Shown here: positions 1-36,494 of the stretch, one piece after another
Layout: every line of letters begins with the position of its first letter
Position numbering within the stretch: position 1 is the stretch's first letter
Assembly: GCA_964415025.1 (NCBI GenBank)
Contig: CAYPXF010000001.1
Coordinates: 9,390 to 73,389, forward strand
Source: an uncultured Gammaproteobacteria bacterium
GTDB lineage: Bacteria > Patescibacteriota > Patescibacteriia > UBA10025 > JAHIVO01
Direction of reading: 5' to 3'
Length of the DNA: 64,000 nt
Made by a program: the position numbers and the translations under genes
The notes under the pieces: model-generated
Database searches by the model: none
What the model saw: the letters and a program-made list of their open reading frames with translations, nothing else
What the model was told of the DNA's origin: nothing

Positions 1-869
1 TAATTAAAGTACTCTTTCAGTTATTCTATTTTGTGCGATTCTTGCTAGTATACGATGTATTTCATTTCTATTTTGGAACTTCGCTTCTGCCATATAATAG
101 AGACTTGCCTATATTAAAATTATTCAATAAAAAGATATTTTTTACATTTCAAGGAAGTGACATCAGGATTTCAAAAGTATCTAATACATTACATTCTGCA
201 CAAACAATTGTATCACAGCATAATAAATGCAACAATATATCAGATGAGATCAAAAAACAAAAAATTAATTTTATCACAAAATATGCTAATAAAACATATA
301 TATTAAATCCGGATTTAAAACTATTCTCTCCAGCATCAGAAATACTACCCTATGCCCATTTATTTCCTAATAAGTGGGTAACAAGAAATAAGTATCATAC
401 CAACAAAACTCACTGGACTATTTTGCACGCACCCACGGATAGAAATATTAAAGGAACTAAATACGTTATCAAATCAGTTGAAGAATTGCAACGACGTGGA
501 TATAAAGTCAGGTTACTCCTCATTGAAAACATATCTCATGACGAAATGTTGCATGCATGCGCAAAGTCTGATATTGTGATCGATCAGTTACGTATTGGGT
601 GGTACGGTGGTTTCGCTGTTGAAATGATGTCGCTAGGGAAACCTGTTTTATGCTATATTGATACCCGCATGAGTCGCTATGTTCCCTATTTCAATCAAAT
701 ACCCATTATAAATGTCACTCCTAGCACACTTACCAATACAATTATCGATTTGATAAAAGATCCATATCGTCAATATATAGTTGGTAATAAAAGCAGAGTA
801 TTTGTTAAAAAAATTCATAACCCTCTTCATATTGCACGTAAGACGCTGAATCATTATTTATCATGCTAA
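1..869 (+). CDS. Glycosyltransferase family 1 (GT-B C-terminal half). The reading frame is open to the window edge, so the gene is probably N-terminally truncated by the window.
   Basis: The frame of the 33..869 ORF stays open back to position 1 and the reported start is GTG. The motif GGFAVEMMSLGKPVLCY resembles the GT1 EGFGLxxLEAMAxGxPVI block. Confidence 0.45.
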   Translation, partial: IKVLFQLFYFVRFLLVYDVFHFYFGTSLLPYNRDLPILKLFNKKIFFTFQGSDIRISKVSNTLHSAQTIVSQHNKCNNISDEIKKQKINFITKYANKTYILNPDLKLFSPASEILPYAHLFPNKWVTRNKYHTNKTHWTILHAPTDRNIKGTKYVIKSVEELQRRGYKVRLLLIENISHDEMLHACAKSDIVIDQLRIGWYGGFAVEMMSLGKPVLCYIDTRMSRYVPYFNQIPIINVTPSTLTNTIIDLIKDPYRQYIVGNKSRVFVKKIHNPLHIARKTLNHYLSC

Positions 870-2350
870 TACAAAACCTGAAACGACTCTCAAAAGACAC
901 TTTAATATACGGTTTCGGCCGTGTTATTGAGTATATTGCTGCTTTCATTTTGCTTCCAGTATTTACTCGTATTTTTTCACCGGCTGATTACGGTATTTTA
1001 GACACACTAAATACGGTTGTATCTGTTATTTCATTATTTTTACTGATGGGGCTAAATTCCGCAACACAAAGATATTATTTCGATTCAGAAAAAGATCATA
1101 AGCAGGGATTGGTGGTGATTTCGACTGCCTTTTGGTTTTTGGCTATAGTAAGTGTTGTTGTTTCATTTATACTGATTTATTCATCCGATACTATTTCGAA
1201 TATATTATTCGATTCTACTGAATACAGCTACCTTATTGCCGTTGCTATCACCGCAATACCATTTATACTTATGGTTTCCTTCATTAAAGATGTGCTTCGA
1301 TTAAAATTTGCACCGTGGAAGTTTAGTACTTTAAGTATTGTACATTTTCTTTTAAATCTTGGAATAGTTATTTTTCTAGTAATTATACTAAAAAAAGGAT
1401 TAGTGGGCAACTACTATGGTGTTTTATTTTCGGTTATTATCACCCTCATTATTTCGATATATCTAATAAGGAATGATATTTCTTTTTTATTTTCAAAATA
1501 TTTTTTAATAAAACTATTAAAATTTGGTTTACCACTTGTTTTTGCAAGTTTTGCTTACTGGGTAATTACTTTTTCTGACAGGTTTTTCATCCTAAAATTA
1601 TCAACCCTTACTGAGCTAGGACTTTATTCAGTTGGAAATCGTGTAGCAACAATATTGATTTTAGTTGTTACGGCTATACACTTAGCTTGGAGTCCTCTTA
1701 TTTTTCAAAAGCACAGAGAAAAAGAATCATCTGCATTTATAGTGAAAACGATGACGTATTCTTTGATTGTTTTTTGTTTTTTTGCCGTAGTACTTACATC
1801 ACTTTCATTTGAAACTCTTACCATTCTCACACCCCGATCATATATAGGGGCAATTTATGTTGTAGGATTATTAACGTTGGGGATTGTTTTTTTAGGAATT
1901 TCAGGTATAGTCACTACTGGACTAACACTAGCTAAGAAAACAAAATATATTACCATTGCTTACATTATTTCAGCTGTTGTAAATATTATTTTAAATGCAC
2001 TTTTAATTCCATCATACGGTATTATTGGAGCATCTGTATCTACGTGCTTTTCATATATATTATTATTTGCTTTATGCTATTATTTTACACAACAATACTA
2101 TCGGCTTTCATTTGAATTAAAAAAATCAATAATAATTATTATTTTAACAGCATTTTTACTGTTTTTGGGTACCTTTGCATCACTCGAAAACATGGTAGTA
2201 AGTATAATGCTCAAACTATCATTAATATTACTATATCCGTTTGTGTTATATTATTTCAATATAATTGATCATAATGAAAAGTTAATTATTAAAAACTATA
2301 TACTAAAAACAATGCATCGTCTCAAAGTAATAATACTTTTTCATCAATAA
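863..2350 (+). CDS. Polysaccharide biosynthesis protein, Wzx-like oligosaccharide flippase (MOP superfamily)
   Basis: 495 aa with about 12-14 hydrophobic segments. The N-terminus (LxKDTLIYGFGRVIEYIAAFILLPVFTRIFSPADYGILD) is typical of the PST/Wzx family. Confidence 0.7.
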   Translation: MLIQNLKRLSKDTLIYGFGRVIEYIAAFILLPVFTRIFSPADYGILDTLNTVVSVISLFLLMGLNSATQRYYFDSEKDHKQGLVVISTAFWFLAIVSVVVSFILIYSSDTISNILFDSTEYSYLIAVAITAIPFILMVSFIKDVLRLKFAPWKFSTLSIVHFLLNLGIVIFLVIILKKGLVGNYYGVLFSVIITLIISIYLIRNDISFLFSKYFLIKLLKFGLPLVFASFAYWVITFSDRFFILKLSTLTELGLYSVGNRVATILILVVTAIHLAWSPLIFQKHREKESSAFIVKTMTYSLIVFCFFAVVLTSLSFETLTILTPRSYIGAIYVVGLLTLGIVFLGISGIVTTGLTLAKKTKYITIAYIISAVVNIILNALLIPSYGIIGASVSTCFSYILLFALCYYFTQQYYRLSFELKKSIIIIILTAFLLFLGTFASLENMVVSIMLKLSLILLYPFVLYYFNIIDHNEKLIIKNYILKTMHRLKVIILFHQ

Positions 2351-2355
2351 TAACT

Positions 2356-3438
2356 ATGCGCACTACAAAACGTACGATACTTTCAATAGTTGGCGCACGA
2401 CCTCAGTTTGTAAAACTTTGGGCACTTGAGAAACACATGAGTATCTTTAACCATATTATTATTCACACCGGACAGCATTATGATTTTAATATGTCAGAAG
2501 CTATATTTAAAGATTTAAATATACCAAAACCACATATTCACTTAAATATTGGATCTGATAAACCAACCTTGCAAGTTTCTAAAATGATATCAGGACTGGA
2601 CGATGTTATTAAGAGCTATGATCCTGATAATATTCTCGTATATGGAGATACAAGCTCAACACTGGCTGGCGCATTGACTGCACGTATGAATAAAATACCG
2701 CTCAGTCATATTGAAGCCGGCATGCGCAGCTATAACGTTATGCCAGAAGAGACTAGCAGGGTTGTGTCTGACCATATTGCTGATTACCTATTTTGTTCTA
2801 CATCTACTGCAATGAACAACTTACAAAATGAAGGCATCTATTCCAAAAGTTACCTTGTCGGCGATCTCATGGCCGATGCCTTACAAACAATGCGCCCACT
2901 CATTAATCAAAATTCATCATTACTGCAGAAATATAAAGTTATGAAAAATGAATATTTACTACTGACTGTACATCGCGAAGATAATACGATAAATAAAGAA
3001 AAATTATCAAATATTCTGCACGCATTCTCTAAAATAAATTATACGACAATATTTCCGGCACATCCGCGTACTAAAAAGGCAATTTCTGATTTTGGATTAA
3101 TGGATATCATTACAAAAGCCCCAAATATTATGATGATAGACGCAGTACCTTATAGCGAGCTGCTTACATTACAAAATTATGCAAAAAAGATCATAACTGA
3201 TTCTGGAGGCATGCAGAAAGAGGCCTATTTGCTCCGTAAACCTTGTATTACACTTCGACTTGAAACGGAATGGGTTGAAACAGTAGAAGATAATGCAAAT
3301 ATTCTAGTTGGGACAAATAAACCTGCTATCATACAGGCCATTAGACAGTTTGATATTGACGAGTCAGCCAGCAAACTTCGTTATGGTGAAGGCCGTGCAG
3401 CTGAAAAAATTGCAAAAATAATTAATTCAACTGGATGA
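2356..3438 (+). CDS. wecB: UDP-N-acetylglucosamine 2-epimerase (non-hydrolysing)
   Basis: N-terminal ILSIVGARPQFVKLWAL...HTGQHYDFNMS and 360 aa length match the WecB/MnaA family. Confidence 0.85.
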   Translation: MRTTKRTILSIVGARPQFVKLWALEKHMSIFNHIIIHTGQHYDFNMSEAIFKDLNIPKPHIHLNIGSDKPTLQVSKMISGLDDVIKSYDPDNILVYGDTSSTLAGALTARMNKIPLSHIEAGMRSYNVMPEETSRVVSDHIADYLFCSTSTAMNNLQNEGIYSKSYLVGDLMADALQTMRPLINQNSSLLQKYKVMKNEYLLLTVHREDNTINKEKLSNILHAFSKINYTTIFPAHPRTKKAISDFGLMDIITKAPNIMMIDAVPYSELLTLQNYAKKIITDSGGMQKEAYLLRKPCITLRLETEWVETVEDNANILVGTNKPAIIQAIRQFDIDESASKLRYGEGRAAEKIAKIINSTG

Positions 3439-4718
3439 AAAAAATTCTCATAGTTAGTTATTACTTTCCTCCGATTGGCTCAAGCGGTACAGTTAGGATA
3501 TCTAATTTTGTCAAATATTTACATAAATACGATTGGACATGCCACGTATTAACCGTAAAAAATATTTTTCATCATGCAATAGATGATACATATATACACG
3601 ATGTGGAAAAAGCATCACAGGTTCACAGAACTTTTCATATCGAACCAAGGTCTTTCTATCGTCAATCTCATGATTATTCCTTAAATATTAAACCCTCAAG
3701 GATAAAAAGGAATATCATTAAATTTTTTCGTTTCCTAATAAAATTATTTTTAGTTCCGGATGAAATAATTCTATGGTCACCATTTGCAATAATTAAAGGG
3801 ATTTATATTATTTATAAATATAATATTGACATTATTTTTTCCAGTTCACCGCCACCAACCGTACATATTATCGCATATTTTCTAAAAATATTTACTGGTA
3901 AAAAATTAGTTGTTGATTTTAGAGATGAATGGATAAATGACCCATTTAGCTCAATGCCAACAAGTGTACATCGCCGGATTAATTTATATTTAGAAAATCG
4001 TATACTGCAAAAAGCTGATGCTATAGTGGCTGTTACTCCAACAATATTTGAAGAAATGAATACACAATATCATCATAAATTCCGTACTATTACAAATGGA
4101 TACGATCCAGAAGATTTTCAGATCGGTCCCCATGCATCCGATCCCACAAAGAAGCTAACTTTTTATTATCCTGGTACATTTTATAAACATAGAACACCTT
4201 TTTATTTCTTGCAAGCTTTGCTATTATTATTAAAAGACCAAAAGATTAACAAAGATGAAATTTCAGTAATCTTCCAAGGTAATATTTCGCCAGATACATA
4301 CAATCAGTATATTCTTAATAATCATGAATTACTAGAAATTATAAAAATTAGACCGTATGCTGACCACCCTACGGTTATTAAGAATATGATCTCAGCTGAT
4401 ATTTTACTTTTAGTTATCAGCACACAGAGCGGGTTAGGTTCTCTGTCTGGTAAAATTTTCGAATATATCGCCACTGGAAAACCTATTTTAGGGCTTGTTC
4501 CCGCAAATGGTGCTGCTGCCTCTTTGATTAGGAAAACACAAACAGGCATTGTGGTTTCTCCAGAAAATATTTCCGATATATATAATAGTATTTATGAATT
4601 GTATAAAAGGTGGAACAAAAGTAGCTTACAAATTTATCCACATAAACCATTAATTAAAAAATATTCGAGAGAATCTCAGACAAAATTATTAATACGTGTT
4701 TTTCAAAGCCATATATGA
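3435..4718 (+). CDS. Glycosyltransferase family 1 (GT4-like)
   Basis: 427 aa. Starts MKKILIVSYYFPPIGSSGTVR, the typical GT4 N-terminal glycine-rich loop. Its start overlaps the upstream gene by 4 bp. Confidence 0.6.
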   Translation: MKKILIVSYYFPPIGSSGTVRISNFVKYLHKYDWTCHVLTVKNIFHHAIDDTYIHDVEKASQVHRTFHIEPRSFYRQSHDYSLNIKPSRIKRNIIKFFRFLIKLFLVPDEIILWSPFAIIKGIYIIYKYNIDIIFSSSPPPTVHIIAYFLKIFTGKKLVVDFRDEWINDPFSSMPTSVHRRINLYLENRILQKADAIVAVTPTIFEEMNTQYHHKFRTITNGYDPEDFQIGPHASDPTKKLTFYYPGTFYKHRTPFYFLQALLLLLKDQKINKDEISVIFQGNISPDTYNQYILNNHELLEIIKIRPYADHPTVIKNMISADILLLVISTQSGLGSLSGKIFEYIATGKPILGLVPANGAAASLIRKTQTGIVVSPENISDIYNSIYELYKRWNKSSLQIYPHKPLIKKYSRESQTKLLIRVFQSHI

Positions 4719-5725
4719 CGACCACTCCACACATTGGGATTATAGTATTAAATTGGAATGGTATTGATAACACCCGTCGCTGTCTTACATCCTTACAAAA
4801 AATCACTTACTCCAACTATTCTATATTTCTTGTTGACAATGGATCTACAATTAATGAATCGGATGTCTTAAAAAAGGAGTATCGGGAGATAATAGCCATT
4901 CGAACTAAAAATAATTTAGGCTTCTCTGGTGGAAATAACATTGGTATAAAATATGCACTATATGATTCCGATAATTATTGCGATTATATTCTAATTTTGA
5001 ACAATGATACAGTAGTTGAAAATAACTTTCTTTCTATCATGGTTAGAACTGCAATTCAAGACAACTCTGTCGGTATGGTAAGTCCAACCATGTTATCTAT
5101 GAATAATCATAATACTATTGATAATATGGGATTATGCCTCACCCTATCTGGTATTCCATTTAACAGAAAAAAGAATAAAAGAATTTTATTATGCCCTTCT
5201 GGCGGCGCGGCTTTGTATTCACGTCAAATGCTAAAAGATATATGCCTCGACGGTGACTATTTTGATTCCACTTTTTTTGCTTATGCTGAAGATTATGACA
5301 TAGGAATGAGAGCACTCCAAGCTGGCTACAAACCTGCACATGCGAATAACGCCATTATATATCATAAGGGTTCTGCATCAACTGGGTTAATGAGTGATTT
5401 TGCAATCTACCATACCTATCGAAATTTATTGCTAGTTATAGTTAAAGACTGGCCTTTCCTACTACTTGTTATCAATGCCCCCTGGATAATATTGATGCAA
5501 ATATGTTTAATCTTCCTCCATAGTAAACGCGGAACTATTCATATTCTACTTAATGCATACCGAGATTTTTTCAAATACATTCCACAATACATAAAAATGA
5601 GGAACATTATTCGTTCCCATAAACAGATAAGTTCTATTGTATTGCTTCGATATTTTGAAAAACGTGTAGTCCTACTGGAATATATACGAAATGCGATCTA
5701 TACTAACGGACAGTCTCAGGATTAA
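4715..5725 (+). CDS. Glycosyltransferase family 2
   Basis: GIIVLNWNGIDNTRRCLTSL...FLVDNGSTINES is the GT2 signature. There is an overlapping start. Confidence 0.75.
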   Translation: MTTTPHIGIIVLNWNGIDNTRRCLTSLQKITYSNYSIFLVDNGSTINESDVLKKEYREIIAIRTKNNLGFSGGNNIGIKYALYDSDNYCDYILILNNDTVVENNFLSIMVRTAIQDNSVGMVSPTMLSMNNHNTIDNMGLCLTLSGIPFNRKKNKRILLCPSGGAALYSRQMLKDICLDGDYFDSTFFAYAEDYDIGMRALQAGYKPAHANNAIIYHKGSASTGLMSDFAIYHTYRNLLLVIVKDWPFLLLVINAPWIILMQICLIFLHSKRGTIHILLNAYRDFFKYIPQYIKMRNIIRSHKQISSIVLLRYFEKRVVLLEYIRNAIYTNGQSQD

Positions 5726-7979
5726 ATTCAAATATATATATATCATCAATTTTTTTATATGTGCCCATTAATTCTATCTGTTTCTTGAGTGTATAGTCAC
5801 TAATCCATCTCTCCTCGGTCACAAAATAACATTTATCAGTCTTCGTAATATCGAGGGCTTTTTGTAAATCTATTTTTTTTGGATCTCGAAACAAATTTTG
5901 CTGAATTTCAACAAGCGCAGGTTGACTAAATTCTTCACCAATAGTAAATCCGCCCCCTATTATTTTTTTTGCTGATATGCTCTCTAATGCTAATAGTGGC
6001 CAAGTATCACTGATAACACAATATCTAGTTTCATCCTTTATCCTTTTATAGATATACTCCATTGCTTTCAATTCTGAAGCAGAAACCATCCGCAGTACTG
6101 GACCTGAAACATAATTAAAAAGTAATATAATTGAGATCATGATTGCTAAGCTAGATACAATAATCTTTTTATTATTTGCAAGCAAATAAATATTATAAAC
6201 TCCAAATACAACTAAGGGCAGTAAAAAAAGATATAATAGCAAGTCAATTCTGCTAGATAATGGCGCTGGACCATTAATAATATACCGGCTTCCGATATAC
6301 AACACTAGAAAAAAAGACATGACAAATATTAATATAATATTTCTGAATATTTTCGCTATTTTTAAATAAACTATTCCACTGATTATTAATACTAATAAAA
6401 ATAAGTTAGCAATAAATGATGTAGTAATTGATTTTATTGGATACCAATGCATCAGCTGTGGTATATTGTTTAAATTATAAAAGAATGTACCTGATGCAGC
6501 TATAGAACCAAACTGTGTTATACCAAATATATTAAGTATCCATCTGCCGAGTGACCGAGGTGTTTCCCAACTTAATAGACTAGCAGTGTCAAAAGCTGAG
6601 CTAAGATTAAAAATATTTGCATAATATATATCCAAACTTATAATTATTGTGCTTATTGTTAATGATCCTACTGCGATAATTATACAATGATAAATCTTTT
6701 TGCTTAGTTTTATAGTTGTTACCTTTTTTACTGCCTTGTAAAGTACAATAATGCTAAGTAAAAGAACCCATATAACCAAGGCTATGATATAATTTAAATA
6801 CAACATCAATGTAAGAATACCTATGAATACGTAACCCTTTTTTGTAGGCACCTTACTTACATCTAATAATACCAACGCTGCAAATATAAATAAAAGATGT
6901 CCAAATGAGTATGGCACGGTAATAGCCCCATACACTTGTAGAACCCAAAATATTGTACTGGAAAATGATAAAAGTAGAGGTATAATTTTACTATGTGGAC
7001 ATACTATTTTACCAATTTTGTATAATAATATCGGTGTGAATAATGACCATAATAAAAATACCAGTACTAAATCAATCCAAAATATATCAATCGCGGCTAT
7101 CTTACTAATAATTACAGTTATCGCCCACTGGTTTGCGTATGATGTTTTATTACCTACCAAGAAGACTGAAGGTATTTTAACCTGACCAAATTCTTTATAT
7201 GAAATAGTATCATCGAGAAAACTTGGCGATACTACATTTCCTTCAGCAATATATCTCTCGGTAGCTATATGCCTCCATTTATCACCTCCGTATCCAACTT
7301 CGTATATAATTGGTAAGTAACTATGGATAAGTACTGAAAATAAAATAATTATAATGAGAATTACAGTACTTTTTAATTTAGTAAATATTAAATATAATAT
7401 TATAAAACTTGATAATAATATCACTACTAGGTATAAATTTGGAATTACTTCCCACGGTGCCATAATATAATTACTCGTGCGAGCTCCATATAGTAATAAA
7501 AAACCAATAATAAATAATAAGGGCAAGCATATTATATATATCCTTGGTACATTTAATAAATTTATTTCTTCGTAATTGTTATTTATTTCAGTACGGCTTT
7601 TATTATATATGCCTAGTAGCCAATTAGCAGCAGATATTAATACAGATACTATGAGTAATATTATAAAAATTACAACATCGGATAATTTTAAAAAGACAAT
7701 AAAAAATGCGCCTAAAAAAGCGATCGAATATATATAGAATAAAGTACTTAATGCATTATTAAATTGACCTTTAACAAAATTAAAATTACTAAATATACCA
7801 CCAAGCCATAAAATACAAATTATTGAAAATAAAAGAAATAGCACAATACCAATGGCTGATATTTGGTATGTGGTTAAATTTACATAAATGCCAATACTAA
7901 AGAGAATATTTATTAGCGTAAATATTCCATATTTATTAACACGAACAGTATCTGCTAACTGAATAAGTAATTGTTTCAT
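5703..7979 (-). CDS. Large polytopic membrane protein with a soluble C-terminal domain. It may be a GT-C type glycosyltransferase or a polymerase.
   Basis: 758 aa with about 18 hydrophobic helices followed by a ~150-aa hydrophilic C-terminus. It sits in the polysaccharide locus. No diagnostic motif was recognised. Confidence 0.45.
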   Translation of the reverse strand: MKQLLIQLADTVRVNKYGIFTLINILFSIGIYVNLTTYQISAIGIVLFLLFSIICILWLGGIFSNFNFVKGQFNNALSTLFYIYSIAFLGAFFIVFLKLSDVVIFIILLIVSVLISAANWLLGIYNKSRTEINNNYEEINLLNVPRIYIICLPLLFIIGFLLLYGARTSNYIMAPWEVIPNLYLVVILLSSFIILYLIFTKLKSTVILIIIILFSVLIHSYLPIIYEVGYGGDKWRHIATERYIAEGNVVSPSFLDDTISYKEFGQVKIPSVFLVGNKTSYANQWAITVIISKIAAIDIFWIDLVLVFLLWSLFTPILLYKIGKIVCPHSKIIPLLLSFSSTIFWVLQVYGAITVPYSFGHLLFIFAALVLLDVSKVPTKKGYVFIGILTLMLYLNYIIALVIWVLLLSIIVLYKAVKKVTTIKLSKKIYHCIIIAVGSLTISTIIISLDIYYANIFNLSSAFDTASLLSWETPRSLGRWILNIFGITQFGSIAASGTFFYNLNNIPQLMHWYPIKSITTSFIANLFLLVLIISGIVYLKIAKIFRNIILIFVMSFFLVLYIGSRYIINGPAPLSSRIDLLLYLFLLPLVVFGVYNIYLLANNKKIIVSSLAIMISIILLFNYVSGPVLRMVSASELKAMEYIYKRIKDETRYCVISDTWPLLALESISAKKIIGGGFTIGEEFSQPALVEIQQNLFRDPKKIDLQKALDITKTDKCYFVTEERWISDYTLKKQIELMGTYKKIDDIYIFEFNPETVR

Positions 7980-9121
7980 GTTGCGTTATAAATTGCTACT
8001 AATTTATCTACTATAACATCCCATGAGAAGTGTTTCACTACTTTCTTTTTACCATTAGCTCCATATTCTTTTTTTAATTCTTCATTGTTTATAATAATGC
8101 GTATCTTTTTTGCAAGTTCTCTATCATTCCCTACCCGAAACGTAAGACCGTCCTTTCCTGTATTAATCAAGGTTCGAACCCCAGGCAAATCAGAAGTTAT
8201 AACCGGCGTACCGCACGCCATTGCCTCCAGCGTTACCAGGCCATATGCTTCTGTTTTATCAGTTGAAGGTAGTACTAATACATCAGCAACGTTATAAATA
8301 TCTATCAGTGTATCATTATCTACTTTATTTAAAAAGAATACCCTCGACTTAAGTGCGAGTTTATTGGATTGTTCCTCATATTCTGACTGTAAATTTCCTT
8401 TTCCAACAATAATTAATTTTGCTTCTGGCAACTCTTTCATGGCATTGAGCAATACGTCCAATCCTTTGAAATAGTGCGCTTCGTCAAGGCCGCCGACAAA
8501 AAGAACTATCTTTTTTTTATCTTTTCTGATTTTCTCAACTATTTCTCCTGTTATTTCTTTTTCTCTGAACTTATTTATATCTACACCATTAGCAAGGGGT
8601 ATAAATTTGTTCTCATGAGCACTATAGTATTTATATATGTCAGAATGTTCAAAATAATCCCAGGTTGATACAAGTACTTTATTCGCCCGCATAACAATTA
8701 GTTTGGTAAATACTGTCTTATATATCCAGAATAAATATCGTACCCATTTTCTACCCACTAAGTCCATTTGGTATTGTAATATAATCCTTACTTTTTTATC
8801 TAACAATAAATATAAATATAGAAACTCTAATCCAATAAACGGATAATGTATATGTACAATATCGTATTCTTTTATTTCTTTGCTAATATTAGGTAACAGG
8901 GAGGCATTCCCAAAGGTCAACAATGATTTTTTTTTAATTACTCGATATTTTGCGGGGTGATACATGTCCTGTATCTCATTTTTATATGACGGTATAATGA
9001 CATCAACATTCCACCCTCTTTTCGCCAGCCCCTCTACCTGATTTTTACATACATTACCAATCCCTCCCTTATACGGAGGGAATGTCGATACCACATGTGC
9101 TACTCGTAGTTTTTGTTTCAT
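7976..9121 (-). CDS. Glycosyltransferase family 1 (GT4)
   Basis: KVAHVVSTFPPYKGGIGNVCKNQVEGLAKRGWNVDVI is the N-terminal GT4 motif, and the C-terminus has a VLPSTDKTEAYGLVTLEAMACGTPVITSD block. Confidence 0.8.
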   Translation of the reverse strand: MKQKLRVAHVVSTFPPYKGGIGNVCKNQVEGLAKRGWNVDVIIPSYKNEIQDMYHPAKYRVIKKKSLLTFGNASLLPNISKEIKEYDIVHIHYPFIGLEFLYLYLLLDKKVRIILQYQMDLVGRKWVRYLFWIYKTVFTKLIVMRANKVLVSTWDYFEHSDIYKYYSAHENKFIPLANGVDINKFREKEITGEIVEKIRKDKKKIVLFVGGLDEAHYFKGLDVLLNAMKELPEAKLIIVGKGNLQSEYEEQSNKLALKSRVFFLNKVDNDTLIDIYNVADVLVLPSTDKTEAYGLVTLEAMACGTPVITSDLPGVRTLINTGKDGLTFRVGNDRELAKKIRIIINNEELKKEYGANGKKKVVKHFSWDVIVDKLVAIYNAT

Positions 9122-9123
9122 TA

Positions 9124-10098
9124 TTATTTAATCTGCTCTCTCCAGTAATTCAATGTGTCTACGAGCGTTGTGTTCATATAGTCAATTTCTGGTTTCCATC
9201 CTGTAGTATCACAAAACTTAGAGTTATCACCAAGCAATACCGGCACATCAGAGGGTCGCATTCTTTTCGGATCTTGTATCACTTTTATCCCCTTATGATT
9301 AGAGTGATTAATGAGTGCCTGCAGCACATCCTTTATTTTGTAATCCTGACCAGAGCAAATATTATATACCTCTCCGGGTTCGCATTTTTCGGTGGCGATC
9401 CAGTAAGCCTTTACGATATCACGCACATCAGTAAAATCACGTCGTGCATCTAGGTTGCCGACCTGAATAACGGGTTCTTTTCTACCACGCTCTATTTCTG
9501 CAACTTGTTTTGCAAAATTACTATCCACAAAAACATCTCCCCGTCTTGGGCCAGAATGATTAAATGTTCTTGTCCGTATTATTCGCACGCCATAACTCAT
9601 GTAATATTGATAGCCCATGTAGTCTTGTGCAACTTTAGATACGGCATACGGCGACATCGGGCGTAGCGGGTTTGATTCTCGTATAGGGATTTCATCAGGC
9701 TTCACCAGGCCATATTCTTCTGAAGAGCACGCAATTTGTATGACGGGGTTATAGTCATCGCTTATTAATTTTCTGACCGCCTCAAAAACATTACACTGTC
9801 CTGTAATATTTATTTCAAGCGTTTCGCTAGGAGATTCCCATGAGGTCGGGACAAAACTTTGCGCCGCCAGATGAAATATCTTATCTGGCTTAATTGTTTC
9901 AATAATACTCGATACATTATGGGCATCTTTGATATCACATTCATAAAAAGATATTGATGACTCAATGTCCTGGATATTTGCCATATTGCTTCGCCAGCGT
10001 TTGATGCCAAATATTTCAACATCCGGATGATGCTCTAAGATGTACTCGGCTAGATGACTGCCTACAAATCCGGTTATCCCGGTAATTAACACTTTCAT
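9124..10098 (-). CDS. NAD-dependent sugar-nucleotide epimerase/dehydratase. It resembles GDP-mannose 4,6-dehydratase or GDP-6-deoxy-4-keto-mannose reductase.
   Basis: Starts MKVLITGITGFVGSHLAEYIL with a Rossmann GxxGxxG loop, and has a YxxxK-type SDR core at YAVSKVAQDY. Confidence 0.7.
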   Translation of the reverse strand: MKVLITGITGFVGSHLAEYILEHHPDVEIFGIKRWRSNMANIQDIESSISFYECDIKDAHNVSSIIETIKPDKIFHLAAQSFVPTSWESPSETLEINITGQCNVFEAVRKLISDDYNPVIQIACSSEEYGLVKPDEIPIRESNPLRPMSPYAVSKVAQDYMGYQYYMSYGVRIIRTRTFNHSGPRRGDVFVDSNFAKQVAEIERGRKEPVIQVGNLDARRDFTDVRDIVKAYWIATEKCEPGEVYNICSGQDYKIKDVLQALINHSNHKGIKVIQDPKRMRPSDVPVLLGDNSKFCDTTGWKPEIDYMNTTLVDTLNYWREQIK

Positions 10099-10104
10099 AA
10101 TTTT

Positions 10105-11148
10105 TTATTCTTTCAATGATAATTCTTTTACGCTGATCCCATAATCTAAAAACCATTGTTTGATTTCTTTTTGTGTTGCCCGTACGCTTATGTTCTTTCT
10201 TTTTGTGATCATTTTTTGCGCTCCTGCTAATGCATGGAGCCACCCTTTACACACCGCATATACAAGCTTAACAAACGAATACTCCTTAACAAAATTACCT
10301 GATGATCCTTTGTGCGTCACTATGGCTACCGCTTGGTACGTATACCGTTTACATGAGTAATATATACTTGCCAGTATCATGCCCAGCGGCAGCAGTTTGA
10401 TGATAAACCAGATCCTGTTTCTCTCGATATAATACGCTTTTCGAGGAGAATATTTACCGGTCGTAGCGGAATACATATGATACACCCTCGCGTCAGGAAT
10501 AAATTTTGCTTTCCAGCCGGCGAGGCGTCCTCGAAAACCCAAATCGCTGTCCTCGAGGTAGAATTGAAAATCTTCATCGAGGAGTCCGATCTCATCAAGC
10601 ATTTTTTTGCTATACACCCCCCCACAACCGCTTGGCATTAAAATATCAGATTTATTATCAAATTGTCCCTCATCAGATTCCATTCTCCCCCTTCCTCTGC
10701 ATATCCCGTCCCGATAAATAATCAATCCTGTACTATCAATTATTTTTTTATCATAATAATTTAATATTTTTAATGCCCACATACCTGTCATATCCCGCTG
10801 GTTTTGTATGGTTTTGAGGATAGCAGCTAAACAATCTTCAGCGAGTTCAACATCATTATTAAGAAGTAAAATATAGTCCCCGCGAGCGTGTCGAATGCCA
10901 GCATTATTTCCAGCGGCATACGTATTTATTTTATTGACAATAGTTTTTATTGAAGGGAACTGTTTTTTAATATACTGAACAGAATTATCTGTGGAACCAT
11001 TATCTACAACAATAATCTCAAAATCAGATATTGTTTGTCGAAACAGTGATGGCAAACATATTTGTAAGCATTCTAAACCATTATAATTTAATATGACTAC
11101 TGATATAAGCGGATTTTTTGAAATTTCAGCCTCAAGCATTTGGATCAA
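10105..11148 (-). CDS. Glycosyltransferase family 2
   Basis: ISVVILNYNGLECLQICLPSL...IIVVDNGSTDNS is the GT2 signature. Confidence 0.8.
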   Translation of the reverse strand: MIQMLEAEISKNPLISVVILNYNGLECLQICLPSLFRQTISDFEIIVVDNGSTDNSVQYIKKQFPSIKTIVNKINTYAAGNNAGIRHARGDYILLLNNDVELAEDCLAAILKTIQNQRDMTGMWALKILNYYDKKIIDSTGLIIYRDGICRGRGRMESDEGQFDNKSDILMPSGCGGVYSKKMLDEIGLLDEDFQFYLEDSDLGFRGRLAGWKAKFIPDARVYHMYSATTGKYSPRKAYYIERNRIWFIIKLLPLGMILASIYYSCKRYTYQAVAIVTHKGSSGNFVKEYSFVKLVYAVCKGWLHALAGAQKMITKRKNISVRATQKEIKQWFLDYGISVKELSLKE

Positions 11149-11479
11149 TATCTTTCAGACTTTCTTTTCTGATAAATTCCTCGATTTTCCTTTCCATGCG
11201 TTTGACAATCACATAATTCCTAAACGTAACGCCAAAAAGCACGACAATGCCGACGATAATAACGAGATCAAACGTACGGCTGATACTAAACGCTTCCAAA
11301 ATAAATTTTACGCTTGTTGGAAATAAGACTACAACGACCAAGCCGATCCATAATACCTGCCATAAAATAAATTCTATTCTCCTAAATTCTCCCCGCCGGA
11401 AATGCAGGTAGCTAAAATAGATCATCCACAGCGCGAATAGTATAGCTAATATCTGTATACCGATCATATAATTCTCCAC
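11132..11479 (-). CDS. Small membrane protein, DUF2304-like, partner of the downstream GT2
   Basis: 115 aa with 3-4 TM segments, immediately 3' of and overlapping a dolichol-phosphate-mannose-synthase-like GT2. This is the usual DUF2304/GtrA-type pairing. Confidence 0.55.
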   Translation of the reverse strand: MENYMIGIQILAILFALWMIYFSYLHFRRGEFRRIEFILWQVLWIGLVVVVLFPTSVKFILEAFSISRTFDLVIIVGIVVLFGVTFRNYVIVKRMERKIEEFIRKESLKDIDPNA

Positions 11480-33686: not shown

Positions 33687-35135
33687 CTAGGCAGCTGTCT
33701 TTGCGCTCAAAACAACCCACGGTGTCTTGAGCAGTATTTGGAAATCAAGTTTAGGTGACCAATTCTCTATGTAGTATATGTCAAGTTTGGCCTCATCTTC
33801 GAAGTGTAAATCGGAACGGCCGGACACCTGTGCCAACCCCGTCATGCCAGGCTTAATAGTTAAGAGTGTCTGATGCCAGCGCTCATACTTAGATACTTCC
33901 TCTGGCTCATGCGGTCGGGGGCCAACTAAACTCATCTCGCCCTTGAGCACATTGATGAGTTGGGGAAATTCATCGAGGCTTGTTTTCCGCAGTATTCTCC
34001 CGACCCGAGTGATGCGTGGGTCGTCCTTTATCTTGAATAAGGGGCCGTCAGATCGTTCATTATAACGTAATAAATCTTTTTTTAATTGCTGTGCGTTTCT
34101 AACCATTGATCTGAACTTGTACAGCGTAAACCGTTGTCCCCGTTCACCGACACGCTCCAGCCGGGCAAACACGCCACCTTGCGAATCGACTACAATGCAC
34201 ACCGCGACAATCATAAATACTGGTGACAGCATGATGAGCAGTAACAACGACAAGGTAAAGTCAAGTCCGCGTTTAAATATCCTGCCCCACCCGTCTAGCT
34301 TCGTACGCTGGACCTCGATAATCGGGATGCCCGCTATCATATTAATTCTAATATGGGTCGGCTGAACCTCAAATAAATCAGTCGCGTATTTGAAGGTAAT
34401 GTGGTAATCAGCGCAGGCGTTGCGTATGGCGATGACCTGCTCTTTTGGCAGGTGGGCATCGGTCTGAATTATTTCGTCAATTGTTTCTGTATTAATTTTT
34501 TTTATGAACTCATGCTGCGCAGTTTCGTCAAACTGATCATAGTGATCAATAATTTTATATCCCTGTGAGGGATATTTATGGATGTGCTTAATGATATCTT
34601 CAGTGGTCTTGTTGCTGCCAATGATAACTACATTATGCAATCCTGTGCCCTTTTTCAGCAAAGCTCGCTGAATGCCGCGTACGATTAAACGGCCAATGCT
34701 GACCATGAATATAGAAAATATCCAGCCAAAAATGACGATAAACCTGGATGAAAACAATTCACGCTGAAAAAATATTATAATAATGACCAAAGCAATCGCC
34801 GCGGTACAAGCGACAAATACCGTGGTAATCTCATCGATCAGCCGTCGCGTGCTTTTTATGGCATAGAGGCCGGACAAGGCAAATATTATTATAAATACAA
34901 ACGGAATAATAAATAGTACCTGCATATAGTCACGCAAGACTATCTCCGTAACAATCGGCTTAATGTCCGTAAAAAAGGGCACAAAGCGCAATTGGTAAGC
35001 AAAAATACCCGCACAAATAACCATGAAGTAATCAACGGGTATTAATATCGCACTGAAAATTAATTCAGACTTCTTCATATAATAGAGGTGGTAAGCTCCA
35101 GCAGGATCATAAGCCGAATTCTGTCCCGCCCGCAC
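33687..35135 (-). CDS. Polyprenyl glycosylphosphotransferase (WbaP/WcaJ-type priming sugar transferase)
   Basis: 5 N-terminal TM helices and a C-terminal bacterial sugar-transferase domain: KRGLDFTLSLLLLIMLSPVFMIVAVCI...YKFRSM...DEFPQLINVLKGEMSLVGPRP. Confidence 0.85.
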   Translation of the reverse strand: MRAGQNSAYDPAGAYHLYYMKKSELIFSAILIPVDYFMVICAGIFAYQLRFVPFFTDIKPIVTEIVLRDYMQVLFIIPFVFIIIFALSGLYAIKSTRRLIDEITTVFVACTAAIALVIIIIFFQRELFSSRFIVIFGWIFSIFMVSIGRLIVRGIQRALLKKGTGLHNVVIIGSNKTTEDIIKHIHKYPSQGYKIIDHYDQFDETAQHEFIKKINTETIDEIIQTDAHLPKEQVIAIRNACADYHITFKYATDLFEVQPTHIRINMIAGIPIIEVQRTKLDGWGRIFKRGLDFTLSLLLLIMLSPVFMIVAVCIVVDSQGGVFARLERVGERGQRFTLYKFRSMVRNAQQLKKDLLRYNERSDGPLFKIKDDPRITRVGRILRKTSLDEFPQLINVLKGEMSLVGPRPHEPEEVSKYERWHQTLLTIKPGMTGLAQVSGRSDLHFEDEAKLDIYYIENWSPKLDFQILLKTPWVVLSAKTAA

Positions 35136-35713
35136 CGTCAGACGGTGAAGGGGTAATGGTTATCTATCTTGTCCTGATATTGCTATCAGGATCATGCAAC
35201 CAACCCACCCCCACGCCTTTTATGTACGCCTTTATTACAGTTTTTTCTGTGAATGATGATGGCATCAAGCAAAACAGCAGTTTATATGCTCTATAATAGT
35301 ACACAAAAGGTGTGGGGGTCTACTTGGTCTTGCACCGGATAGGGTTTTTCACGCCAGCATGTCACCATACTGACCTGTGAGCTCTTACCTCACCGCTTTT
35401 CACCTTTACCCCCACACTGATACTTTTATTACTAGTATAATCGATTACTTGAACAAGAGTATCAGTGTGGGGGCAGTATCGTCTCTGTGACACTTTCCCT
35501 AGAATTCTGCTTTTTAAAAGGCTATAGCGCTCTTAAAAAATACGTTACTTCTGGTCGCATTTCGCGACTATCCTTGGCATCTTTGTCATAAAACAAAGAA
35601 GGGTGTTCGGACTTTCCTCTCCCCACACCAATACTTTCATTTATCGCTACTATCGGGCGTTGAAACGATAATATTGGTGTGGGGAGCAACCATCTCACCT
35701 CCTGGAGCTTACT
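35087..35713 (-). ncRNA. rnpB: RNase P RNA (bacterial type A-like), unusually long (~625 nt) because of extended P3 and extra inserted helices
   Basis: Conserved blocks read on the minus strand. AGAGGAAAGUCCG (plus 35608-35620) is the P4 5' strand. GGUAAAGGUGAAAAGCGGUGAGGUAAGAGCUCACAG (plus 35375-35410) is the P10-P12 block. GUGAAAAACCCUAUCCGGUGCAAGACCAAGUAG (plus 35320-35352) is the P13 block. ACAGAAUUCGGCUUAU (plus 35109-35124) is the P4 3' strand, with a compensatory change that preserves P4 (AAG-U-CCGAA pairs with UUCGGCUU). The closing helix GUAAGCUCCAG/CUGGAGCUUAC lies at 35703-35713 and 35087-35097. Confidence 0.8.
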
Positions 35714-35798
35714 AACGATAATAGCGAAATTGTCCATATTTGTCAACTCCTATGGCTGTGCTATGCTAATTGTAAACAATCTCCTATAGTAATTCTAT

Positions 35799-36494
35799 AT
35801 GCTTGTTATTGCCCACCGTGGCGTCAGTAGTGAGCAGCACGAAAACACCCTATCGGCATTTGCAAAAGCACTCGACTATAAATGTACCATGGTTGAATGT
35901 GACGTGCATTGCTGTGCTTCAGGAGAACCAGTTGTACATCATGATGAGAATATCAATCACCCGCCTTTCCCCGGTAAACCAATTTCGCGTCTGACTTTGT
36001 CACAGTTAAAAACCGTCTCATTGCCCCAGGGCCAATCCATCCCGACCTTCAATGAACTGCTTACTCTTTTACGCGGCCAGACAAATATAAATATTGAGCT
36101 GAAAGGCAGGGCTACAGCAGCGCCAATCAGCCGACTTATTCAAATCCAGCTTTGGCGCGGCGCATGGCGCCCGGAACAGTTTCTCATCTCTTCATTTGCA
36201 CCGCGTGAACTGTTACGGAGCAAGCAGCTATTGCCAGACATCCGGCACGCATTGATTAGCATCAATTGGCCGATCCTGATACGGTTGTACAAACGTGCCA
36301 TGCCGCTATATTCGCTCCATATGGATGCCCATCATTTTCGACCACGACACATATCCCGTGCCCACCGACTCGGGCTGAAATTGTATTGCTATACGGTGAA
36401 TGATCCTGATCATGCCGCCGGACTAAAAGGACATGGCGTTGACGGGATATTCAGTGATATGCCGCATATGATACGGCATACGACACTCGAGTAG
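35799..36494 (+). CDS. Glycerophosphodiester phosphodiesterase family protein
   Basis: N-terminal MLVIAHRGVSSEQHENTLSAFAKAL...VECDVH has the GDPD HR(G)...E.D.H catalytic motifs. Confidence 0.8.
   Translation: MLVIAHRGVSSEQHENTLSAFAKALDYKCTMVECDVHCCASGEPVVHHDENINHPPFPGKPISRLTLSQLKTVSLPQGQSIPTFNELLTLLRGQTNINIELKGRATAAPISRLIQIQLWRGAWRPEQFLISSFAPRELLRSKQLLPDIRHALISINWPILIRLYKRAMPLYSLHMDAHHFRPRHISRAHRLGLKLYCYTVNDPDHAAGLKGHGVDGIFSDMPHMIRHTTLE

Follow-up and report, generated by a model that had tools for sequence, protein, structure and literature searches.

The 64,000-nucleotide (nt) stretch of contig CAYPXF010000001.1 analysed here (hereafter, the window) carries on its minus strand a gene for a class A RNase P RNA, rnpB, which is 622 nt long and has strongly extended peripheral helices. 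The best explanation of this gene as a whole, which we regard as probable, is an rnpB whose extended helices derive from copies of a mobile element. The evidence comes from a palindromic hairpin module that is shared by helices P3, P12 and P17 of the window gene, that occupies different rnpB helices in different species, and whose arms recur in intergenic copies of other ultra-small bacteria, inserted with a target duplication. An earlier note, made by reading this DNA, had taken the resemblance of these helices to miniature inverted-repeat transposable elements (MITEs) as a mere appearance resolved by the RNA fold. That view has to be reversed, as the arm is shared with a truly mobile palindromic element.

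An oversized rnpB gene with an intact class A core

The whole window was scanned with Rfam 15. The RNaseP_bact_a model (RF00010) matched positions 35094-35705 on the minus strand with 196.4 bits (E = 4.5e-62), against a gathering score of 100 bits, over the full model (positions 1-367) and without truncation. As this was the sole Rfam match, the window contains a single rnpB. P1 is a perfect 11-bp helix (35712-35702 paired with 35101-35091), and the gene spans 35091-35712 from the P1 5' strand through the P1 3' strand. Folding of the complete RNA gives -252 kcal/mol (z = -12.7 relative to shuffled sequences). Without constraints, the fold contains P1, P2, P3, P8, P9, P12, P14 and P15-P18 as well as the extra hairpins; the class A set P15-P18 is seen in the minimum-free-energy or the centroid fold, and all of it is aligned to the RF00010 model. 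The catalytic core is canonical class A, with P1-P5, P7-P11, P13-P15, P18 and the P4 pseudoknot with its bulged U. P13, P14, P15-P17 and P18 are all matched by the model, the GGU motif is present near P15, and this motif, the universally conserved P4, J12/13 and the P13 and P14 loops are intact. The GGGTT sequence 3' of P17 is invariant in seven relatives (alignment A2). The core features, all on the minus strand, are:

35091..35712, minus: rnpB, class A RNase P RNA (RF00010, P1 extension, fold)
35702..35712, minus: P1 5' strand GUAAGCUCCAG, perfect 11-bp complement of 35091-35101
35606..35618, minus: P4 5' strand AGGAAAGUCCGAA (model; covaries with the 3' strand in 48 relatives)
35353..35395, minus: P13 (GGUAAGAGC loop) and P14 (UGGUGACA loop), of usual size (model)
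35171..35193, minus: P18, of usual size (model)
35109..35124, minus: P4 3' strand ACAGAAUUCGGCUUAU (model; covariation)
35091..35101, minus: P1 3' strand CUGGAGCUUAC (P1 pairing)

Both strands of the P4 motif were found (GAGGAAAGUCC and ACAGAA..CGGCUUA, with the bulged U). The two inner pairs are AA/UU in the window gene and can pair in all 48 relatives: over 48 Patescibacteria rnpB genes, the variable pairs are AA/UU in 23, GA/UC in 22, AG/CU in two and the wobble combination AG/UU in one. That the gap holds a class A rnpB gene is practically certain. Its expression is predicted from a conserved promoter-like site 6 nt upstream of P1. In itself this rnpB is ordinary, the expected single-copy gene of a genome of the candidate phyla radiation (CPR).

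Much of what the earlier note had read in this region holds. The repeats, the motifs and the open reading frame (ORF) that it described are all where it placed them, the gene is indeed an oversized rnpB on the minus strand, and the Rfam search that it proposed returned RNaseP_bact_a, above its gathering score, as the only match. The quoted motifs follow the canonical order, the compensatory AA/UU change in P4 with its bulged U is borne out by the covariation over the 48 genes, and P1 closes an RNA of 622 nt where about 625 had been proposed. The assignment of motifs to helices needs amendment. P4 was correctly labelled, but the block GGUAAAGGUGAAAAG...GGUAAGAGC, given as P10-P12, is the P12 3' strand, J12/13 and the P13 loop, and the block AAACCC...CCGGUGCAAGACCAAGUAG, given as P13, corresponds to the 3' strands of P11 to P5, J5/15 and P15/16.

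The extra length lies in six peripheral hairpins

Inverted repeats were searched within 35000-35800. Three pairs of arms stand out, 35619-35642 / 35663-35686 (24 nt, 88% complementary), 35409-35430 / 35452-35473 (22 nt, 91%) and 35207-35227 / 35299-35319 (21 nt, 90%), within a closing inverted pair at the ends of the region (35080-35105 / 35698-35723). These repeats are far beyond chance: the arm core CCCCACAC has six copies in the window, five of them in the rnpB gap, when 0.97 are expected and none of 100 shuffles reaches six, and all three copies of CCCCCACAC in the window fall in the gap. The excess per helix was taken from the insertion counts of the Rfam alignment. Relative to the 367-nt model, it amounts to about 245 nt spread over six peripheral hairpins, whereas the earlier account had named two places (roughly 200 nt over E. 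coli M1 RNA):

35619..35687, minus: P3, 69-nt hairpin, module copy 1 (CCCCACACCAAUAU...AUUGGUGUGGGG); excess about 44 nt; -36.1 kcal/mol; its arm is that of the dispersed element
35578..35601, minus: P5.1-like hairpin between P5 and P7, 24 nt; excess about 22 nt; -7.5 kcal/mol; also in relatives
35501..35552, minus: P9, 52 nt, AU-rich, with GCUAUAGC at its centre; excess 40 nt (42 nt where the model has 2)
35404..35476, minus: P12, 73-nt hairpin, module copy 2 (CCCCCACACUGAUAC...GUAUCAGUGUGGGGG); excess about 45 nt; -39.2 kcal/mol
35207..35319, minus: P17 (P16/17), 113-nt hairpin, module copy 3 (ACCCCCACACCUUUUG...AAAAGGCGUGGGGGU); excess about 82 nt; -44.1 kcal/mol
35125..35153, minus: P19-like hairpin between the P2 3' and P4 3' strands, 29 nt; excess 14 nt; -14.6 kcal/mol

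The insertions are confined to the tips of peripheral helices, and the sequence of the P9 extension is kept in all close relatives. The best-supported account of the size of this RNA is that peripheral helix tips are free to grow in this clade; extra length at the tips appears to be tolerated, and relatives without the extensions score equally well. Insertion of a self-splicing intron or of a homing-endonuclease gene, as in CPR rRNA genes, was considered and rejected: the Rfam scan gave no match to an intron family (group I or II) anywhere in the window, and the inserts are simple hairpins of 63-113 nt, none of which carries an open frame of its own of at least 60 amino acids (aa). The only ORF of at least 60 aa in the gap is a frame of 74 aa that runs across several helices and the promoter.

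The module occupies different helices in related rnpB genes

The window rnpB was aligned with those of six close relatives, whose sugar transferases, encoded next to rnpB, are 63-72% identical. The module is a hairpin whose arms read CCCCACACC(AAT..)/(..ATT)GGTGTGGGG. Which helices carry it depends on the species, so that five helices are either filled or empty in one relative or another:

Window: module in P3, P12 and P17
L007: module in P3 and P17
L002: module in P3, P12, P17 and P19
L161: module in P12 and P17
L006: module in P5.1 and P19
L005: module in P19 only
L004 and L008: no module; short helices of usual size; Rfam scores of 208 and 206 bits

In the window gene, the P3 copy ends in CCCCACACCAAT...ATTGGTGTGGGG, the P17 copy in ACCCCCACACC...GGCGTGGGGGT and the P12 copy in CCCCCACAC...GTGTGGGGG. 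These terminal inverted repeats are identical to those of the dispersed copies described below, and the P17 copy also has the AC and GT flanks (AC|..|GT) that are typical of intergenic copies. Over 17 rnpB copies, base pairs 1-8 are invariant, while pairs 9-16 vary on both strands without loss of pairing: ten covarying pairs show double changes, 93% of the cells are paired, and none of 500 shuffles reaches as high a value. The interiors cannot be aligned across species. Fixed ends, a free interior and a maintained stem together resemble the terminal inverted repeats of a small mobile element, unlike helices under purely structural selection. The two copies of L007 have interiors that are 84% identical (z = 8.7), which points to recent copying from helix to helix inside the gene.

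Module-like stems were also seen in a distant rnpB from a genome labelled Saccharimonadia (L076:120-640), in P3 (CCCCTCACC...GGTGAGGGG) and in P12 (CCCCACACCATAG...TATGGTGTGGGG); the phenomenon thus reaches beyond the clade related to Kerfeldbacteria.

Intergenic copies of the module are mobile

The stringent pattern CCCCACACCWWT-N(25-55)-AWWGGTGTGGGG retrieved at least 120 stretches from metagenomes, and 80 loci were listed. Only three of the 80 listed loci are rnpB genes (L130, L161 and L162, the last being the contig of L002), and 67 of the 88 copies among the matches listed are not spanned by an open frame of at least 100 codons and are thus intergenic. Other structured RNAs were considered as hosts and rejected: an Rfam search of 40 of the 80 listed loci found RNase P as the only family to overlap a copy. 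Seventeen listed loci hold two or three copies each, and other host genomes show two or three copies per 2-15 kb. Exact matches of neighbouring proteins identified the hosts as Nomurabacteria (L085 and L156) and Paceibacterota (L091), all of the CPR, and as Omnitrophota (L096, L100, L126 and L130). The Omnitrophota copies are mostly of a 51-nt subtype within mosaics of three hairpins. One of them lies in an Omnitrophota rnpB with a canonical GGG/CCC P4 (L130), in which the 51-nt subtype forms the tip of P12. This P12 copy shares 13+13 identical arm bases, and only 1 of 200 shuffles fits the profile of the 51-nt subtype as well as its interior does. The rnpB genes of two phyla and the mobile intergenic copies have arms in common that are identical over 13-15 nt (CCCCACACCAATT/AATTGGTGTGGGG).

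The mobility of the intergenic copies rests on their flanks and on empty sites. Among the matches listed, 50 of 81 distinct copies have AC|...|GT flanks. Within this group, 15 of 50 copies have 6-nt left and right flanks that are identical or differ at a single base, compared to 8.7% for re-paired flanks (permutation p < 0.0002). A Nomurabacteria locus (L156/L205) has two copies, which all near-identical strains keep, so that no polymorphism is seen there. However, in L215, whose neighbouring protein is 85% identical, both of the L205 sites are empty. At site 1, the filled L205 sequence reads ...TTTTTTGTCAAC, then the module from CCCCACACCTTTCATG to CATGAAAGGTGTGGGG, then GTCAACTAGC, whereas the empty L215 site reads ...TTTTTTGTCAACTAGC. 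At site 2, the filled sequence reads ...TTGTAGGTAAC, then the module from CCCCCACACCTATTTTG to CAAAATAGGTGTGGGG, then GTAACAATTC, whereas the empty site reads ...TTGTAGGTAACAATTC. The module is thus flanked by GTCAAC on both sides at site 1 and by GTAAC on both sides at site 2, when L215 has a single GTCAAC and a single GTAAC. These data demonstrate that the module, in its intergenic copies, truly inserts into DNA and duplicates 5-6 bp of its target.

No mobilising enzyme was found, the sole gene met that resembles a RAYT (a Y1 transposase associated with repetitive extragenic palindromic, or REP, sequences) being in L215. It was rejected as the mobiliser of the module: the palindrome on its flanks is another one, and its score of 38 bits is below the 80-bit cut-off of REP_Tyr_transpos. 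This gene (L215:1246-2061) encodes a 228-aa Y1_Tnp protein that is weakly REP-associated-transposase-like and lies beside the empty sites, next to rplJ; with the three copies of the different palindrome (ATACATAGGCTCGGCCTATGTAT) around it, it forms a REPtron-like unit in a Nomurabacteria genome. A phage vector was rejected as well, as 2.9 million viral contigs gave no match to the module. For the Omnitrophota mosaics, integron attC sites or cassette arrays were rejected, since the surrounding genes have housekeeping roles (fab, leu, asd, rplM) and RYYYAAC/GTTRRRY is not matched by the flanks.

Other repeats were noted at these loci. The rplL spacer of L205 (1790-1860) contains a segment of about 85 nt (..CCGGCTAGCGAGCG..CATGATG..GACGGATC..) that is found inverted in L215 (5300-5400), downstream of a gene for a mechanosensitive channel; this segment may be a second small mobile or invertible one. 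In an Omnitrophota-like locus (L106:4750-13950), nearly every spacer in the fab/leu/asd row is filled by other families of palindromic repeats (for example GGGACAGTCCCC...GGGGACAGTCCC) in addition to the CCCCACACC module. At L116:4010-4110, about three head-to-tail units of a shortened module (CCCCACACCTTTTAAAAAAGGTGTCTAGGGTAAAC) follow one another.

Origin of the modules in rnpB

Helices P3, P12 and P17 of the window gene are built from the same palindromic module, whose arms (AC)CCCCACACC...GGTGTGGGG(GT) enclose a free, AT-rich interior. These arms also form the terminal inverted repeats of a mobile element, non-coding and about 50-130 nt long, which enters spacers between genes of other Patescibacteria and of Omnitrophota and duplicates 5-6 bp of its target. 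The rnpB helices were most likely rebuilt from copies of this element and then copied from helix to helix within the gene, a rebuilding that may have been helped by the CCCC/GGGG ends present in native RNase P stems. That three of the six enlarged helices are copies of the mobile palindromic element, or derived from it, with further copying inside the gene, is in our judgement fairly likely. Because the rnpB copies lack target duplications, we infer how they arose; once there, they would persist as neutral passengers. The broader proposal, namely that a previously undescribed family of palindromic elements in Patescibacteria and Omnitrophota has repeatedly supplied expansion segments of RNase P (P3, P5.1, P12, P17 or P19), spreading from helix to helix and independently in two phyla, stands in our view at even chances.

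Several observations weigh against a mobile origin. All copies found in the 64-kb window, and in about 317 kb of sugar-transferase loci from Patescibacteria, lie within rnpB, and the element is thus not visibly active in this lineage; for the DNA sampled, we therefore rejected a genome-wide repeat in the window organism, although the window covers only about 6% of a roughly 1-Mb genome and the negative is not final. The three window copies have no flanking direct repeat or target-site duplication, and each replaces the native helix instead of being nested in it. Their interiors resemble neither each other nor the intergenic subfamilies, the 51-nt subtype included, so the link rests on arms of 9-15 nt. 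Lastly, the native stems of module-free relatives already read CCC(R)C.../...G(Y)GGG, a likeness that could guide recombination with the element or, equally, permit convergence.

Part of this pattern could also be produced by an ordinary rnpB whose helices have grown in place, by slippage or duplication at their tips, with gene conversion between G/C-rich stems making the arms alike, the likeness to the element being convergent or its ends having been taken from such stems. The missing target duplications, the CCC(R)C/G(Y)GGG stems of relatives without the module, the lack of copies outside rnpB in the approximately 380 kb sampled for the clade, and the near-identical copies of L007, which show that intragenic copying does occur, are all compatible with such growth. 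However, it does not readily account for arms of 13-15 nt that are identical in the rnpB of two phyla and in mobile intergenic copies, for the AC|GT flanks that the window P17 shares with 50 of 81 intergenic copies, for the fit of the L130 P12 to the 51-nt interior profile (1 of 200 shuffles is as good), or for the patchy spread of the module over five helices. We consider growth in place unlikely.

Selection on the hairpins as RNA modules is less probable still, and we give it little credence. They would then be a lineage-specific protein site, or duplexes excised by RNase III to leave a fragmented but active RNA, and the arm would be kept for this purpose in rnpB and in intergenic transcripts alike. 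The invariance of the first 8 bp over 17 rnpB copies, with covariation in the remainder, is what a recognised sequence on a maintained stem would produce, and the hairpins are near-perfect duplexes of 17-20+ bp; long near-perfect duplexes are plausible RNase III substrates. However, L004 and L008, which have no copy, keep full Rfam scores, and the positions of the module vary by species. Conservation of the arms is equally expected if a transposition enzyme recognises the ends in DNA, and mobility has been directly shown. Finally, a decaying rnpB pseudogene broken by repeats, or a protein-coding region, could be suggested by the several insertions and the open frame of 74 codons but has a negligible probability, as all 367 model positions are matched, the insertions are at tips only, promoter and synteny are conserved, no other rnpB exists in the window and the ORF starts in the -35 box.

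Synteny, size range and detection of related rnpB genes

The RecJ encoded 3 kb away has its best named relatives, with at most 65% identity, in Patescibacteria / 'Candidatus Kerfeldbacteria'. An identical locus is present in sample SRR7048225. Two relatives, with rnpB genes of 580 and 480 nt, have the same gene order: recJ, PIG-L, RNase H, hydrolase, (GDPD), rnpB, sugar transferase, glycosyltransferases. With the sugar transferase as bait and one genome per species, 80 loci were collected, about 48 of them from Patescibacteria, and in nearly all of these 48 the rnpB P4 motifs lie directly upstream of the sugar transferase on the same strand. In a subset of the loci, the rnpB length given by Rfam is 325-704 nt, the 612-nt match of the window being the third longest after L039 (704 nt) and L007 (615 nt). 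The spacing of the P4 strands over 48 rnpB genes is 259-632 nt (median 347) and 495 nt in the window.

The loci with this arrangement (L002, L004-L052) include genomes labelled Falkowbacteria, Uhrbacteria, Komeilibacteria and Saccharimonadia. Many records named 'MAG TPA_asm: uncultured Gammaproteobacteria bacterium' (binchicken, SRP co-assemblies; L005, L007, L010, L015, L017 and others) also carry the Patescibacteria-type rnpB/sugar-transferase locus, and their labels look wrong. The largest rnpB (L039:1536-2239, 704 nt, with 632 nt between the P4 strands) is devoid of the re-used arm, so the expansions there must have another origin. Lineage-specific expansions unrelated to the module were also seen: in L007 (1865-2492), the P13 loop is enlarged by a further insertion of about 50 nt, L161 (5177-5806) has a large insertion after P5, and both share a similar hairpin of about 60 nt (..GGACAAGTCCA..) at the P19 position.

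The earlier note had further suggested that standard pipelines miss or truncate such genes. This does not hold for the window copy, which scores nearly two-fold over the threshold, but it does for relatives: in L011, L037 and L044, both P4 motifs (5' and 3') are clearly present ahead of the sugar-transferase gene and yet the Rfam gathering score is not reached, and in L033 the Rfam match stops about 100 nt before the P4 3' strand. These four are the copies that an annotation pipeline would really miss or shorten. According to Lui, Nielsen and Arkin 2021 (PMC8172020), the RNase P RNAs of the CPR are diverged and often need lowered Rfam thresholds, and they show 'large extensions of helices' as well as missing helices. 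Because such RNAs were reported there, an oversized rnpB in a CPR lineage is of an already known kind.

Transcription and neighbouring genes

35718..35746, minus: predicted sigma-70-type promoter, TTGACA-17 nt-TATTAT; agrees with the consensus at 11 of 12 positions; its -10 hexamer stops 6 nt short of P1
35522..35746, minus: spurious 74-aa ORF inside rnpB and the promoter; TTG start
33687..35078, minus: Bac_transf sugar transferase, downstream (Pfam PF02397, 1.2e-65); its ATG is 13 nt past the rnpB 3' end
35799..36494, plus: GDPD phosphodiesterase, divergent, upstream (Pfam PF03009, 8.3e-32)

A TTGACA and a -10-like hexamer are found at the same distance from P1 in seven of seven close relatives. 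We propose that rnpB is transcribed from its own sigma-70-type promoter, with a start near 35712. No terminator-like site was found between rnpB and the sugar transferase, and transcription probably continues into the sugar-transferase operon. A promoter before rnpB and no terminator after it suggest that the ribozyme is co-transcribed with a surface-polysaccharide operon (33687-35712).

The TTG start of the 74-aa ORF is the first three bases of the -35 hexamer TTGACA, and the ORF is therefore spurious, as the earlier note had stated. A public gene call placed a 71-aa product on rnpB and stretched the sugar transferase to 482 aa, into rnpB, by using an upstream GTG rather than the start of the 463-aa form, which aligns end to end with its orthologues. 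For this reason, an exact search with the 463-aa form gave no match. The gap of about 660 nt given earlier applies when it is measured from this GTG (35135), but from the conserved ATG (35078) it is 720 nt. The false 71/74-aa ORF and the over-long sugar transferase currently called on rnpB can thus be corrected.

A BLAST search of the rnpB region against a plasmid collection gave no match. At the start of the window, positions 1-11150 form a low-GC block (28-33% in the first 8 kb, 45-48% elsewhere). Its genes, for a flippase, a UDP-GlcNAc 2-epimerase, a GDP-mannose dehydratase-like enzyme and several glycosyltransferases, give it the look of a polysaccharide cluster that is variable and may have been acquired horizontally.

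Discussion

The window rnpB has the full core, the P4 pseudoknot, P13/P14, P15-P18 and the GGU motif in common with Rfam RF00010 and the E. coli M1 RNA type; it differs in its length (622 nt versus a 367-nt consensus) and in having AA/UU in P4 where E. coli has GG/CC. The E. coli M1 RNA is 377 nt long. P5.1-like and P19-like hairpins are usually listed as class B features, and the window rnpB has both.

Repeats or hairpins inside a structured RNA gene have precedents. Vioque is said to have described, in 1997, STRR repeats within a peripheral helix of rnpB in heterocyst-forming cyanobacteria, with function kept. As in our case, a genome-wide short repeat would there lie within a peripheral helix of rnpB; in contrast to the STRRs, reportedly tandem heptamers in one helix, the module is a single long palindromic hairpin with fixed arms that occupies up to four helices. 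The intervening sequences of 23S rRNA are sporadic extended hairpins at helix tips, excised by RNase III, and they share with the module the sporadic replacement of a helix tip of an essential structured RNA by an extended hairpin.

Among dispersed repeats, REPs, their mosaics (bacterial interspersed mosaic elements, or BIMEs) and MITEs are likewise short intergenic palindromes with conserved ends; the Omnitrophota mosaics are BIME-like, and the target duplications are as in MITEs. REPs normally lack target duplications. Unlike REPs and BIMEs with their RAYT, the module has no cognate transposase that we could find, the RAYT-like gene of L215 being flanked by another palindrome. The Rickettsia palindromic elements (RPEs) are also small non-coding palindromic mobile elements that enter functional genes: in Rickettsia bellii, 526 RPE copies include 53 in protein genes and one in the tmRNA gene (PMC1458961). 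However, the module is unrelated to them in sequence and hosts, and RPEs are best known in protein genes whereas the module is mostly intergenic (67 of 88 copies among the matches listed).

The CPR RNase P RNAs of Lui et al. 2021 (PMC8172020) are closest in kind, with the same superphylum, long extensions and below-threshold copies among relatives; the window gene differs in that P12-P14, P16/17 and the GGU motif, missing from many of theirs, are retained. Their text does not describe a re-used arm or a link to dispersed repeats. In the open-access literature, we found no published description of this element or of its occurrence in RNase P RNA, the only matches to the arm sequence being papers on the human insulin variable number tandem repeat.

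If the link between the helices and the element holds, this rnpB would be a natural example of mobile DNA building the expansion segments of a ribozyme. On the broader proposal, the tips of rnpB helices would be a safe harbour for selfish DNA and provide a concrete route to expansion segments in structured RNAs. The link would also account for the reduced sensitivity of covariance models to the RNase P RNAs of the CPR and for the two-fold variation in the length of these RNAs between neighbouring species.

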